From contig NC_005070.1 in NCBI RefSeq assembly GCF_000195975.1, positions 1,470,001 through 1,502,000 on the forward strand: 32,000 bases of DNA. The letters are read 5' to 3'. Below, in pieces: positions 23,220 through 31,906 of the stretch. Position 1 is the first letter of the stretch. Each line of letters starts with the position of its first letter. The position numbers and the translations under genes were made by a program. This DNA is from Parasynechococcus marenigrum WH 8102. GTDB taxonomy: Bacteria; Cyanobacteriota; Cyanobacteriia; PCC-6307; Cyanobiaceae. The notes under the pieces were generated by a model, which was not told the DNA's origin, ran no database searches, and saw nothing but the letters and a program-made list of their open reading frames with translations.

Positions 23220-23260
23220 TGGAGCCACGGAGACTCGAACTCGTGACCCCCTGCATGCCA
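23220..23260 (-). pseudogene. tRNA 3'-half remnant (variable loop/T-arm/acceptor-like); putative island att remnant
   Basis: The minus strand reads TGGCATGCAGGGGGTCACGAGTTCGAGTCTCCGTGGCTCCA. This is a GGGTC variable-loop-like stretch, a GTTCGAGTC T-loop and an acceptor-like 3' end. The T-stem has a 1-nt bulge, and no matching 5' acceptor, D-arm or anticodon arm lies upstream. Confidence 0.55.
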
Positions 23261-23418
23261 TAGAGGAGTTCAAGGGCCTCAAACACACTGGTAGCACTGG
23301 ACTGACACTTAATTAATGCAAATGTGTGCGCAGAATGGGGAGCAGATTTGCCATGCCAGGCAGATCCCCTGCAGGAACTAAGGAGCAGGGCTTTTATTCA
23401 TAATGCAAACCAGAAAAT

Positions 23419-23438: not shown

Positions 23439-24238
23439 AACGCGCCACATAAGCCACCAGTCCACCGTAAAACCGGCTGTCTTCATAATACTCAAATAGC
23501 TAAGCTGTATGTATTCCAAATACGCGTTTTAGTGCCCAAACTTCAGCTTCCTATTCAGGCTGACCTGATCATCAATCGTCTGGGTATGGAAGCCAGTATT
23601 GAACGTCAGCGTGCAGTCTTTGAAATTGATGACAATGCACCACATGTGCCGTCGTACGACCCACTAGCAAATCCCCAAAGCCTACGTCTAGCAACCCATA
23701 TCAGCTGAATTTCAATCAATCGATGAGCAGATCAAGGGTCGTACCCAATCTGCAATTTTAATCTCAGACTCGTCAGCTTGAAGCCCGAATCGCCAAGATC
23801 GATGGCACTAAGCATCTCCTACCAACACGTAGATACAGTCAACCGGTAGACATGGCAAAAATCAGGCCAAACCTGACACTTACATCGCTTATTACACAAG
23901 ATTCCGCAGAGCTAGCTCACTTTTGGGGTATTGATCCTGGTATCCGTCACCGTTCGACCAGGAGAAAGAGAACAGAGCCATGGCAGCGCAGTCGTCAGCG
24001 ATGCGCCAGAGCGCCTTCGCGACAGTAACGAGAGAGCTACAAAGGTCCGCGAGAGCAGCTCACTTATGCGACACAACCCAAGTATTCGTCATCGCATGGG
24101 AGGGAGAGAAGGAAGCCAGAGCCAATGCAGTGGAATGGGTCTGGATCATCAAGGTCGTCATGGGGGGAACTAACAAGCCACACATTGCTTTTCAGGGAAA
24201 TAGAGAGATATTTATAGGAGTTCGTCACCCTGTACGCC

Positions 24239-24934
24239 ATGTTCATCACCGTTTTTGGCCAAAAAGGTGGTGTCGCCAAAACTTGTAGCAGTATTCACAT
24301 TGCAGCATGCTGGAGCTATCAGCAAAAACGGGTAGTCCTGGTTGACTCCGACTGCAACCGATCAGCAACTGCATATGGCGCCAGAGAACTCTTGCCCTTT
24401 CCGGTCGTGCCAATTGAAGCGGCAGCTAAAGCCACTCGATTAGCCGAAATTGTCATAACCGACGGACAGGCAAGCAGCAACGAAGATGAAATTAAAAATT
24501 TGGTCGAGGGAGCCGATTTTATTCTGCTTCCCACCACTACGCAAAGCAGATCAATCGAATTGACAGTTGAGATGTCACAGATGTTGAGAAAATATAGGGT
24601 TCCCTTTGCTGCACTACTTGTAAAAGTGGATGCACGCAAAGAAGCTGCAGCTGAACAAGCCATGGAATTACTTCAGGCATTCGACATCAAAGTTTTAGAC
24701 TCACAAATCCCACTTCTAAGCGCTTTTGAACAAGCAGAAACGGAAGGAGTCACTGTTGATCAAGCGGTTGACAAGCGTGGTCGTGCAAATCCACGCAGGA
24801 TGACCGGATGGTCGGCATACTGCGCTGCCTGCAAGGAAATTGAAGATCTATTCGAAGAGCACCAAAAACTGAGGAAGAATCAATCGCCAATCGGATGGGA
24901 CTTCACACGGATGGAACATCGTGTAGCCGGGTAA
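24239..24934 (+). CDS. parA: ParA/MinD-family partition ATPase (small, type Ib-like)
   Basis: 231 aa with the deviant Walker A GQKGGVAKT, VVLVDSD, and IVITDGQ...ADFILLPTTT. Confidence 0.8.
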   Translation: MFITVFGQKGGVAKTCSSIHIAACWSYQQKRVVLVDSDCNRSATAYGARELLPFPVVPIEAAAKATRLAEIVITDGQASSNEDEIKNLVEGADFILLPTTTQSRSIELTVEMSQMLRKYRVPFAALLVKVDARKEAAAEQAMELLQAFDIKVLDSQIPLLSAFEQAETEGVTVDQAVDKRGRANPRRMTGWSAYCAACKEIEDLFEEHQKLRKNQSPIGWDFTRMEHRVAG

Positions 24935-26424: not shown

Positions 26425-26616
26425 ATGCCGAACATCCTTGATCACGTCTCACTAGCACCAGTCGTTGAAGTAGACGCTTGGCCACGCTCAGCATAACGCA
26501 AGGAATGGTTCGCCATCACAAGGGGCATCATTCAAGACACCATCGCTGACATGAACCTCGATCCTGCTGCTGAAGCAGACGTGATCGAAGCCTTCACTGG
26601 TGCAGGGCTGTTGTGA
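26425..26616 (+). pseudogene. Pseudogene of the 63-aa gene family (in-frame TAA at 26494-26496)
   Basis: It has the same 192-nt length as, and is colinear with, the intact copy 30562..30753. Codon 24 is TAA where the intact copy has ACA. Confidence 0.75.
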
Positions 26617-26635: not shown

Positions 26636-26737
26636 CTAATGGTCGTGCAGCAGCAGCTCAAGCTCTCCATAGAAGAGAGCCATAGTGCCAACGATGGCCA
26701 CGCACAGGGTGGTAGTGAGAAGCAGTTCGTTGAGCAT
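26636..26737 (-). CDS. 33-aa single-TM peptide (copy 1)
   Basis: MLNELLLTTTLCVAIVGTMALFYGELELLLHDH, preceded by AAGGAGGaaaagATG. A second copy lies at 31233..31334 with 5 synonymous and 3 non-synonymous differences. Alternative frames are not conserved between the copies. Confidence 0.65.
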   Translation of the reverse strand: MLNELLLTTTLCVAIVGTMALFYGELELLLHDH

Positions 26738-26897
26738 CTTTTCCTCCTTGTCGCTGTCCTTGGTCTAAGACAAATAGTCAGCACTTGTAGCTATTATTAC
26801 AAGTCTGAATGGAGTGAAAACCGGCCAGCAAGACCGATAGGCTCAAATCGATCGCAGCGCAGTCAACCTCAGCGATTTGCACCCCTACAAGCGCCGG
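26738..26897. repeat. Conserved non-coding leader, copy A
   Basis: Aligns with 31335..31495 and more loosely with 30955..31165. Contains the core GCAGCGCAGTCAACCTCAGCGATTT (26854-26878) bracketed by AAATCG/CGATTT and CCGGC/GCCGG inverted repeats. Confidence 0.7.
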
Positions 26898-27423: not shown

Positions 27424-28620
27424 ATGAAGCCAGAAAACTTCACTTCAGAAAAGATTCCCGCTTCTCTCGATGAAGTGTCTTTGAATTATTTCGCTCACGA
27501 TGGTAATAAAAGAGAGTATTTAACATACATTCCATCAGGCTACTCGCACACAATTGAAGCTCCTGTCATTCTTAATTTTCATGGATTCGGGGGCACTGCC
27601 TCTGGGCAACTTGCTTTATCGGACTGGAGAGACCTAGCAGAAAAGCATGGCATTATTTTAATCTATCCTCAAGGGCTTGAACTGCAGAAAGGCGGAAGTC
27701 ATTGGAATCCCGATCCTGTGTCAAGTGACAGCAAAAGCATAAGTGACGACTTGGGATTTGTAAGACGATTGCTAAAGAGAATCTCAAAGAATTATTCAAT
27801 CGACAAATCACGTGTGTATGCAACTGGCTATTCCAACGGAGCAGGGATGGCATACGGGCTGGCACATCATATGCCCGACCTAATAGCAGGAATTGCTCCC
27901 GTATCAGGGTTGATGAATGACGAATATCTTTCAACTACTTCTGGCGGTTCACCTGTTGGTCTTATAAGTTTTAATGGCGAAGAAGATTGGGTACGCCCAG
28001 TCAATGGCATTAATGGATACTTGGCGTCTGTTGCTGACATATCAAGCCATTGGGCTAGGGAAAATAGTTCAACGCAAAGTATAGCCGAGCAATTCGCACA
28101 AGCCAATGGTGATCGCATTGAACGCACCTCCTACTCTCGAGATGATGGATTGACTACCGTTGAACAATACTTAGTAGACAGGGGTGGCCATGAGTGGTTT
28201 GATCTTGATATCGAAGGCAAAGATCTAAATCAACTTGCGTGGCAGTTTCTTTCGAGACTAAGGAAACAAGATGAAGGCATCTTAACGGCGCGCAAGAAAT
28301 CTCTTGAACTCCGATTGCCAGATGTTTTTACGCGAGGGTTGGCAGACAAGGTTATCAATTTCAATGCATTAACAGATGCAATAGATATTGATATCAATAG
28401 CTTCGGCATTAACAGATCAGCAACGTTCGAAACTGGCAAAAACAAGAAGGAAGTCAAGAAAGTTCTTGCCAAGCAAGACTTCGACTTCCTCTACGACCAG
28501 AAGAAGGGTGGGCTTTACTTCAACGAAAATGGGGCAGACAAAGGCTTTGGGGAAGGCGGCATCATTGCCATCCTTAAAGGCGCACCTGATCTAACGTCTA
28601 GCAATCTAGAGTTTATCTAA
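27424..28620 (+). CDS. LpqC/PHB-depolymerase-family (alpha/beta hydrolase) esterase with C-terminal tail module
   Basis: 398 aa with YLTYIPSGY...PVILNFHGFGG, DDLGFVRRLL and the GYSNGAGM nucleophile elbow. The N-terminus is hydrophilic (no signal peptide). The last ~85 aa are homologous to an internal segment of 25724..26383. Confidence 0.8.
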   Translation: MKPENFTSEKIPASLDEVSLNYFAHDGNKREYLTYIPSGYSHTIEAPVILNFHGFGGTASGQLALSDWRDLAEKHGIILIYPQGLELQKGGSHWNPDPVSSDSKSISDDLGFVRRLLKRISKNYSIDKSRVYATGYSNGAGMAYGLAHHMPDLIAGIAPVSGLMNDEYLSTTSGGSPVGLISFNGEEDWVRPVNGINGYLASVADISSHWARENSSTQSIAEQFAQANGDRIERTSYSRDDGLTTVEQYLVDRGGHEWFDLDIEGKDLNQLAWQFLSRLRKQDEGILTARKKSLELRLPDVFTRGLADKVINFNALTDAIDIDINSFGINRSATFETGKNKKEVKKVLAKQDFDFLYDQKKGGLYFNENGADKGFGEGGIIAILKGAPDLTSSNLEFI

Positions 28621-28650: not shown

Positions 28651-29037
28651 GTGCCTATGGCAATCACCACACGAGCGCAACGCCAGCAACGACGTTACGA
28701 GGCTCTACAGCTGATCAGCTGTGGTGTTCCGCCAACTGATGCTGCTTCACAGCTGACTGTTAAGTGGGGTTGCAGTCGGCGAACGAGTCTGCGTGACATA
28801 GAAAGCGTGCATAGTGAACTAGCAAACGCCTTGGATTCGGTTGAGCTTCAGCAGATGATGGGTTGGCTGGCAACGCAGTATCAACGCCTGGCGGCCAAGG
28901 CTGAACGCGATGGCCAGTACGCCTCAGCTGTTGGTGCGTTGAACGCATTGCGAGCAATGGTTGTGCAACCGCAACTGGATGCGCAGTTTGCTGCGCACTT
29001 CCGTGGTCGCTTTACGCACCAAACGCACCGCAGGTAA
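28651..29037 (+). CDS. 128-aa HTH-like protein, paralog 1 (WGCSRR motif)
   Basis: Paralogous to 31520..31906; both share ...G(V)....(A)..L...WGCSRR...R....H and an Ala/Gly-rich helix (G.(Y/F)A.A(V/I)GA). The probable start is the ATG at 28657. Confidence 0.65.
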   Translation: MPMAITTRAQRQQRRYEALQLISCGVPPTDAASQLTVKWGCSRRTSLRDIESVHSELANALDSVELQQMMGWLATQYQRLAAKAERDGQYASAVGALNALRAMVVQPQLDAQFAAHFRGRFTHQTHRR

Positions 29038-30521: not shown

Positions 30522-30561
30522 ACCCTGCTCAACCATCCGTTTCCAGACGCACCAGATACCG

Positions 30562-30753
30562 ATGCCGAACATTCTTGATCACGTCTCACAAGCACCAGTT
30601 CTTGAAATAGACGATTTGCCACGCTCGGCAACACGCAAGGAATGGTTCGCCATCACCAGGCGCATCATTCAAGACACCATCGCTGACATGAAACTCGATC
30701 CCGCTGCGGAAACAGAAGTAATTGAAGCCTTCACAGGTGCAGGTCTGCTGTGA
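30562..30753 (+). CDS. 63-aa acidic protein (intact family member)
   Basis: MPNILDHVSQAPVLEIDDLPRSATRKEWFAITRRIIQDTIADMKLDPAAETEVIEAFTGAGLL. It has a pseudogene copy at 26425 and a tail remnant at 31171. Confidence 0.55.
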   Translation: MPNILDHVSQAPVLEIDDLPRSATRKEWFAITRRIIQDTIADMKLDPAAETEVIEAFTGAGLL

Positions 30754-30954: not shown

Positions 30955-31165
30955 CCTGTGACCTCCTTGCTACGCGGTCTTCCCCATGGCTTTGGTCTAC
31001 GCCTTTGGAGCAGACACTTGTGTTGGTTGTCACATTTCTGCATGGAGAGAAAAACAGCCATAAAGATGCGCCGGCAGGCAAGCGGACGGACGCTAAATCC
31101 AGTGCAGCGCAGTCAATCTCAGCGATTTAACCATCAAACGGACGGGCCCAACACGGCCTTGCAGC
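30955..31165. repeat. Conserved non-coding leader, copy B (divergent)
   Basis: Shares the TTGGTCTA, CACTTGT and ATGGAG(A/T)(G/A)AAAA(A)C blocks and the core GCAGCGCAGTCAATCTCAGCGATTT (31104-31128) with copies A and C. Confidence 0.6.
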
Positions 31166-31334: not shown

Positions 31335-31495
31335 CTTTTCATCCTTATCTTTGTCCTTGGTCTAAGACAAACCGTCAGCACTTGTAGCTCTTGTCACGAG
31401 CCTGAATGGAGTAAAAACCGGCCACTACAACCGATAGGCTCAGATCCACTGCATTGCAGTCGTTCTCAGCGACTTGTCCCCCTCAAAAGCGCCGG
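31335..31495. repeat. Conserved non-coding leader, copy C
   Basis: Colinear with 26738..26897. The core variant is GCATTGCAGTCGTTCTCAGCGACTT (31451-31475), with the CCGGC(31418)/GCCGG(31491) bracket conserved. Confidence 0.7.
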
Positions 31496-31519: not shown

Positions 31520-31906
31520 ATGACCCGCAAGCGCGTAACCGCTAGCGAGAAGAAACAACGCCATGCATGGGCGATACGTCAGATCGACAAAGGCGTCGGC
31601 TTCTCCGAGCTTGCGACCCTTGTGGCCGAAACATGGGGGTGTTCACGTCGACAAGCCCGTCGTGTCGTAGCTGATGCCCACAAAGAGTGGATGGAGATTG
31701 CCTTCGGAGCTGAGGAGATCGATCAGCGTGACCTGCTGATGCAAAGCGTCGCCCGCCTGGAGCGCACTGCGCGTAAGGCGGAAGCAAGCGGCAACTTCGC
31801 CTGTGCGATCGGCGCGGTTCAGCTGATGAATCGAATGATGGCCTCAGGTGCTGATCAGACGGGATGCCGCGGTCATCGCCGCAAAGGGCACTACTACCGG
31901 CACTGA
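31520..31906 (+). CDS. 128-aa HTH-like protein, paralog 2 (WGCSRR motif)
   Basis: MTRKRVTASEKKQRHAWAIRQIDKGVGFSELATLVAETWGCSRRQARRVV...; paralog of 28651..29037. It lies immediately downstream of leader copy C. Confidence 0.65.
   Translation: MTRKRVTASEKKQRHAWAIRQIDKGVGFSELATLVAETWGCSRRQARRVVADAHKEWMEIAFGAEEIDQRDLLMQSVARLERTARKAEASGNFACAIGAVQLMNRMMASGADQTGCRGHRRKGHYYRH

Follow-up and report, generated by a model that had tools for sequence, protein, structure and literature searches.

A short sequence with a conserved core recurs in a genomic island of Synechococcus sp. WH 8102, and the question raised by this locus is what kind of site that sequence represents. The window (the whole stretch of 32,000 nucleotides that was analysed) comprises bases 1,470,001-1,502,000 of the single 2,434,428-bp contig of this genome, whose tmRNA tag, as read by ARAGORN, is that of Synechococcus sp. 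WH 8102. A first-pass annotation of the window had described three to four copies of the element, one of them upstream of parA, and had offered as explanations a closed stem-loop RNA, a centromere-like site for an orphan ParA, an operator for 128-aa HTH-like proteins and a cassette recombination site. We consider it probable (at roughly 0.65) that the motif is an att-type site-specific recombination site of tycheposon-like, small phage-like integrative elements that target the 3' end of the tmRNA gene (ssrA).

Motif copies and their gene context in Synechococcus sp. WH 8102

The repeated element spans ~45-77 nt around a 26-nt core (TGCAnnGCAGTCnnTCTCAGCGAttt). Pattern matching in the window with the exact core, GCAGCGCAGTC-N(1-6)-TCAGCGA, gave matches at 23983, 26854 and 31104 (0 expected in 100 shuffles), and a repeat search recovered a diverged copy at 31442-31475 (family D4). 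When scored with a motif profile against the whole WH8102 genome, three of the copies originally claimed (A, B and C; Table 1) are real and the one at 23983 is not; the suspicion that the latter was a chance match is borne out, as it codes for ..RAMAAQSSAMR within a frameshifted remnant of a p136-family gene (window 23700-24130), with the orphan parA (24239-24934) just downstream of it. The three-frame translation of this remnant aligns (score 289 plus two further frames) to an intact p136 paralogue (genome ~1,524,35x-1,523,94x, minus strand), which has ..RAMAAQALQMR. Since the match at 23983 is not a member of the motif, the link to parA falls.

Table 1. Features of the window and its island (window positions unless stated otherwise; profile E-values refer to the whole WH8102 genome)
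Feature	Position	Strand	Remarks
Motif copy A	26840..26883	+	Core 26853-26878, CGCAGCGCAGTCAACCTCAGCGATTT; profile E 2.4e-10 at genome 1496840-1496883; pattern match
Motif copy B	31093..31132	+	Core 31103-31128, TGCAGCGCAGTCAATCTCAGCGATTT; profile E 6.8e-11; flanks unlike A and C
Motif copy C	31437..31480	+	Core 31450-31475, TGCATTGCAGTCGTTCTCAGCGACTT; profile E 2.8e-10; 45 nt upstream of 128-aa gene
Match at 23983	23983..24002	+	Not a motif member; partial chance match in frameshifted p136-family remnant (~23700-24130); profile E 0.2
p66-family remnant	26425..26616	+	In-frame stop, MPNILDHVSLAPVVEVDAWPRSA*RKEWF..; 89% identical to 30559-30753
Intact p66-family gene, 63 aa	30562..30753	+	From the ORF list; upstream of copies B and C
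33-aa hydrophobic peptide gene	26636-26737	-	MLNELLLTTTLCVAIVGTMALFYGELELLLHDH
128-aa HTH-like gene	28651..29037	+	First conserved gene downstream of copy A
128-aa HTH-like gene	31520..31906	+	Directly downstream of copy C; PHROG phrog_34910 (unknown function), E 2e-6
42-nt copy of the 3' half of tRNA-Ala(GGC)	23220..23261	-	Local alignment, 40/42 identical; island boundary
Full tRNA-Ala(GGC) gene	genome c[1524847-1524921], outside the window		ARAGORN tRNA list

The CCGGCC and GCGCCGG flanks of copy A fall inside the 77-nt span (26821-26897) first assigned to the element, and A and C share a duplicated 300-nt segment of 87% identity (repeat search). Unrelated flanks surround copy B and ~8 further genomic copies, so local duplication alone does not account for the motif. 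By mismatch scan and profile search WH8102 has about 11 good copies, all in two islands, the first behind the tmRNA gene (+ strand, 342,021-342,339) and the second, which includes the window, behind tRNA-Ala(GGC). On the tmRNA side, good copies lie at 344.9, 373.6, 373.7 and 376.8 kb (counted by strand, four + strand copies and one inverted copy lie 2.6-35 kb downstream of the tmRNA gene), and the tRNA-Ala island holds copies at 1,496.8, 1,501.1, 1,501.4, 1,505.7 and 1,523.3 kb (a tandem pair at 1,523.3). With so few copies in two islands, and with absence from most congeners, a dispersed repeat of the REP/MITE type was rejected; a sigma-70 -35/-10 promoter on either strand was rejected by eye, the supposed -10 being unconserved. 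A tRNA and tmRNA scan of the window found no genes, and no consistent target-site duplications were seen around the motif copies.

The motif is hardly a functionless conserved passenger of recently duplicated island segments. The duplicated block shared by A and C would suit a passenger, as would the many metagenome matches that are near-identical strain variants of the same loci, but the core is retained across 30-65% G+C and amid unrelated flanks, and the reversed core, used as a control, gave 0-4 matches at the loosest setting and none at comparable stringency. Confinement to paralogous leaders, which the first-pass annotation had entertained, is not what pattern and profile searches show; the motif is widespread beyond them.

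The motif copies of the window lie between p66 and p128 genes in units 4.3-4.6 kb apart. Homologues of p66 also precede the WH8102 copies J, H1 and E as well as the motif in three congeners (G183, G214, G226), where the order p66, motif, p128 is kept as in the window; Pfam, NCBIfam and PHROGs gave no function for either family. The full order in these congeners is tmRNA, (tyrosine integrase), p136, p117, p66, one or two motif copies, p128, ..., primase, second integrase and partial tmRNA, with the motif co-oriented with the tmRNA gene, and the motif splits an int-p136-p117-p66 block from a p128..primase-int block and is internal to the tmRNA-bounded unit. The window has p136, p66 and p128 genes of these families as well, in a decayed state. 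The module of copy A recurs near-identically, with the same neighbours, in G183, where it lies 15 kb beyond the tmRNA gene. A further genome used for comparison, G098, has two elements of ~9.5 kb, bounded by one full tmRNA gene and by partial copies of it 9 and 19 kb away; their genes include those for a tyrosine integrase (PF00589, 6e-29), a Prim-Pol/VapE primase and an AAA_25 helicase. No integrase was found in the window, nor in the parts of its island examined.

Between copy A and its 128-aa gene lies an esterase gene (27424-28620; PHA-depolymerase-like, NCBIfam NF050058, 3e-50), and as the equivalent interval in G183 has no esterase gene, it looks, from this comparison, like inserted cargo. 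A perfect palindrome, TGTA-N8-TACA, which we take to be a consensus box for the nitrogen regulator NtcA, is present at window 26786-26801 within a conserved ~100-nt region between the motif and the divergent gene for a 33-aa hydrophobic peptide; it also occurs in the genome 1174262 and 373576 regions. Copies A, E and F have an intact box; that of C and G is degenerate.

On the evidence of these neighbourhoods, it is very improbable that the motif serves the 128-aa HTH-like proteins as an operator or the orphan ParA as a centromere. It is true that copies A, C and J, and those of G183, G214 and G226, have a p128 gene 45-1800 nt further downstream, and that a ParA gene is in the same island, but the two p128 paralogues of the window are only about 27% identical and yet have nearly identical motifs, and the motif is present in phage contigs, Cyanobium-like genomes (L025-L027) and AT-rich contigs whose fetched loci hold no p128 homologue. 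The core is moreover non-palindromic, and the proposal of a centromere had rested on the sole copy near parA, i.e. on a coding coincidence in a pseudogene.

Position behind the tmRNA gene and exchange of flanks

In three relatives (G238, G183, G025) the motif lies 5-11 nt past the last tmRNA hairpin. The full-length tmRNA gene of G238 ends in the hairpin GGGGCUGGAAGGCCCC, followed after 5 nt by ACCATTCCACCGCAGTCGATCTCAGGGATCA, and this trailer scores E 3.4e-4 in 2.5 Mb with a profile trained solely on copies not adjoining tmRNA; a partial tmRNA copy in G183 is also followed by the motif (ttaaccatttcactgcaggcgatctcggc), with the same placement after the partial copy of G025. The Rfam tmRNA model stops exactly at that last hairpin, and the motif is therefore a post-gene trailer; the possibility that it is part of a tRNA or tmRNA body was rejected, since ARAGORN and Rfam put the gene end before the motif. 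Among 23 distinct tmRNA 3' flanks, two beat all 1379 decoys and five more were in the top 3% (7/23 in total). In WH8102 itself the tmRNA gene is followed by AAACCATTTCACCGCAG, matching the left half of the motif, and the sequence beyond is homologous to the integrase-proximal region of relatives. Most native tmRNA trailers resemble the motif only loosely, and a profile made the other way round, from 22 heterogeneous native trailers, retrieves no motif copies in WH8102, so that the homology between motif and trailer is solid only in a subset of the trailers and in the left half. It is in this subset and this half that the motif carries sequence homologous to the flank of the target gene.

Directly after the WH8102 tmRNA gene (genome 342,340-342,560) lies the start of an integrase (..IPPVLAGMDKAE, matching that of the G098 integrase), whose start codon is joined, in frame, with the C-terminal portion of a 128-aa family protein; the arrangement reads as the deletion scar of a former integrase-bearing element.

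Comparison of 80 nt on each side of the motif revealed that flank identity switches exactly at the motif, with left and right sides reassorting. Copy B and the metagenome contig L198 are 94% identical on the left and 41% on the right, H2 and L198 61% and 95%, J and K 16% and 98%, and C and F1 (genome 373647) 80% and 11%, respectively. A hybrid junction was found at genome 345,0xx, where the A-type left half (a degenerate copy) passes directly into 252 nt duplicated from the 3' end of radA (345,021-345,273), a duplicate that lies 2.7 kb past the tmRNA gene; the junction falls exactly at GCGATCTCA, which is common to both partners, and the true radA is intact (2,144,865-2,146,283). A half-site joined to different partners is thus seen in the flank switches (94/41, 61/95 and 16/98) and again at the radA junction, which looks, from its sequence, like use of a secondary target. 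Homologous recombination across the conserved 30-nt block could also be a source of mosaic flanks. The cassette recombination site that the first-pass annotation had listed among its options agrees with these findings. No clear dyad symmetry or palindrome was seen in the motif core; classical tyrosine-recombinase core sites show dyad symmetry.

In the mechanism that we propose, the left half (AAAtCCATTgCAsCGCAG) would be the stretch just past the last tmRNA hairpin and the right half (TCgATCTCAGCGAttt) would be brought by the elements, whose circular form would have the order p66, left half, integrase. An incoming element would recombine with the resident trailer near GCAG|TCGATCTCA, and integration would pair the left half of the element with the resident right half; it is near this point, within the motif, that we infer the recombinase to cut and join. 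As each integration joins two half-sites, motif copies would come to sit at the seams between successive elements, and the window may be read as a tandem stack of decayed, integrase-less 4.3-4.6 kb units (motif, cargo, 128-aa gene, ..., p66 gene, motif) inside the tRNA-Ala(GGC) island. The motif of G183, G214 and G226 would then be the seam of two nested elements and not an internal site. Which integrase acts on the motif, and how tmRNA-type units reached the tRNA-Ala island, are points on which we infer rather than observe. An att site would explain the post-tmRNA position, the tandem copies, the mosaic flanks and the radA hybrid.

Occurrence in other genomes and phage contigs

The core also occurs in some congeners (good matches, <=2 mismatches, in about 9/51 genomes), in Cyanobium-like genomes, in AT-rich Prochlorococcus-like contigs and in uncultured phage contigs. 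The metagenome scan gave 10 loci only; the scan of assembled-genome contigs used an over-loose pattern, and nearly all of its matches are chance, L086 alone being real. A blastn search of an isolated-phage collection with one phage-type and one host-type query gave no match. Motif-bearing phage contigs encode three different primase families, with the motif ~1 kb downstream of the primase genes, and homologues of p66, p128, p117, p136 and the small hydrophobic peptide are absent from them within the fetched loci. No integrase was found in the fetched flanks of most motif-bearing phage contigs; a large serine recombinase lies 0.7 kb from the motif in L066, and a homologue is about 1 kb off in L194. 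Patchy in congeners, present in phage contigs, close to a serine recombinase and often adjacent to iterons, the motif has a distribution that appears typical of mobile DNA, and an att site would explain both the patchiness among congeners and the presence in phage contigs.

The orientation of the motif relative to adjacent genes varies, being sense in hosts and in a T7-like contig, and antisense to all flanking genes in three phage lineages (L059-type, L061/L066 and L033 contigs). This bears on the proposal of a structured RNA, which might act as a cis-regulatory leader, a 3'-end element or a small RNA through an AAATC..GATTT / GGGG..CCCC hairpin with a conserved apical sequence, transcribed after the p66 and tmRNA genes or ahead of the 128-aa gene. 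We think such an RNA unlikely. It would agree with the co-orientation of the host copies with upstream p66 and downstream p128, with a motif start 2-10 nt past stop codons (p66, argJ) and 5 nt past the tmRNA hairpin, with flanking stems in many Synechococcus copies, where pair 18-53 changes from U-A to C-G in 6 sequences, and with the complementarity, read by eye, of CCAUUGCAGC to the tmRNA 5' region GCUGCAAUGG. However, Rfam 15 gave no match at gathering score or E<=5, and the fold energies of seven copies and three reverse complements match those of shuffles (z -1.5 to +1.2). The AAATC..GATTT and CCGGC..GCCGG repeats reported earlier are present in the sequence but only partly shared in the family: across 28 distinct Synechococcus copies the GGGG-TAAATC / GATTTA-CCCC helix pairs in 78% of cells vs 74% in shuffles, with double changes at 6/10 helix pairs vs 3.9 expected, a weak to modest covariation. 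The GCGAAAA subclass has no inner stem, stems are missing from the phage, Cyanobium-like and AT-rich copies though the core is conserved there, and with the motif antisense to all neighbours in three phage lineages its strand is not fixed. The closed stem-loop RNA first suggested is not supported.

Some of the same loci invite a reading as a replication or host-factor DNA site within the origin of the elements, kept because a conserved host protein binds it. Iterons adjoin the motif in G238 (TGCGGATAA x3) and in G183 and G025 (CGGGATAAAT x3), GTGAAAA repeats do so in L025-L027, the phage-contig copies lie downstream of primase genes of three families, and in the T7-like contig the motif stands just past the RNA polymerase gene, which is where the primary origin of T7 lies. 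In the Cyanobium-like L025-L027, a helicase-like gene of AAA_25 type is followed by a 450-nt intergenic region that holds four degenerate copies. We nevertheless hold an origin site to be improbable, as it leaves unexplained the fixed place right after the tmRNA hairpin and the radA hybrid and flank breaks exactly at the motif, and copies A-C have no nearby iterons or replication genes. Att sites and origins are commonly adjacent in small integrative elements, so that motif-iteron adjacency is also expected if the motif is an att site.

Several of these loci merit separate description. In L025-L027 the intergenic region (oriented 1260-1700), which also holds several CGTGAAAA repeats, sits between the helicase-like gene, judged from sequence, and a downstream gene, and has the appearance of a replication-origin or att region. 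The AT-rich metagenome contigs L189 and L193 (Prochlorococcus-like, 30-33% G+C) have a near-perfect core 10 nt past the argJ stop codon; there is no tmRNA gene near the motif in these two contigs, and the argJ flank of WH8102 itself has no motif. In the T7-like viral contigs L067 / L031 the motif is just past the gene for the phage RNA polymerase, with CTCCGGTCT on its two sides as a 9-nt direct repeat; a flanking repeat was seen in one T7-like contig only. The sequence after the motif in L059-type contigs resembles what we take to be the Syn5 phage promoter (TGGGCACCC). The motif may be a cos site in the L061/L066/L033 phages, in which it is just upstream of terminase genes, but a cos site fails to explain the host copies.

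Comparison with described integrative elements

Tycheposons of Prochlorococcus are small integrative elements that combine a module for integration with a primase/helicase module for replication, and which target seven tRNA-type genes including tmRNA and tRNA-Ala(GGC), stack in tandem in islands and leave partial target-gene copies at their borders (Hackl et al., bioRxiv 10.1101/2020.12.28.424599). G098, G183, G214 and G226 share this architecture, and tRNA-Ala(GGC) and its 42-nt partial copy delimit the island of the window; the likeness is one of architecture and targets. In contrast to tycheposons, the host here is Synechococcus and not Prochlorococcus, the repeated site is beyond the annotated tmRNA 3' end with most copies lacking a recognisable tmRNA part, and the units of the window have no integrase or replication genes. 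In tDNA islands more generally, elements with tyrosine integrases interrupt a tRNA or tmRNA gene and make it whole again with a copy that they bring along; the 3' fragment thereby displaced lies at the distal end of the island, and such fragments recur in tandem arrays (Islander, PMC4383910; Williams 2002, NAR 30:866). Here, unlike in those islands, the conserved block is a post-gene trailer and not a T-arm or acceptor segment, the motif copies are only partly identical to native trailers, and the crossover point is putative. Elements that integrate at tmRNA and tRNA-Ala(GGC) and leave partial copies of the target have thus already been described, and what we report is a Synechococcus case of that kind, in which the conserved block beyond the annotated gene end would be a minor peculiarity of the motif.

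The motif might instead be a secondary site, at which integrase-less cassettes (motif, cargo, 128-aa gene, ..., p66) are swapped in trans between the tmRNA/tRNA-Ala islands and cyanophages, and which doubles as a 3' trailer rebuilding a two-piece tmRNA gene. We give this little credence; if true, it would amount to an integron-like cassette exchange system in marine picocyanobacteria. Integron attC sites conserve structure and not sequence, and have an R''/L''-L'/R' architecture. As with attC sites, short imperfect-palindrome sites part promoter-poor cassettes in tandem here and flanks reassort at the site, whereas the R''/L''-L'/R' architecture is absent and it is the sequence of the core that is conserved. 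The stretches examined showed neither an IntI-type integrase nor attI.

With the motif as an att-type site, the patchwork of the WH8102 island would be explained as stacked remnants of mobile elements that target tmRNA and tRNA genes, the tycheposon-type picture would be widened from Prochlorococcus to marine Synechococcus, and a supposed new RNA motif and ParA centromere would both drop out as candidates. In practical terms, TGCAnnGCAGTCnnTCTCAGCGA could serve as a compact marker for element seams, and for phages or satellites that share the site, in genomes and metagenomes.

As to the island itself, the tRNA-Ala(GGC) gene and its 42-nt copy form a classical att pair about 31.6 kb apart. Because the island is anchored at tRNA-Ala and not at tmRNA, the motif copies of the window would be internal seams and not the island's own att sites. 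Three GTGCGCCAAA repeats come after the tRNA-Ala(GGC) gene.
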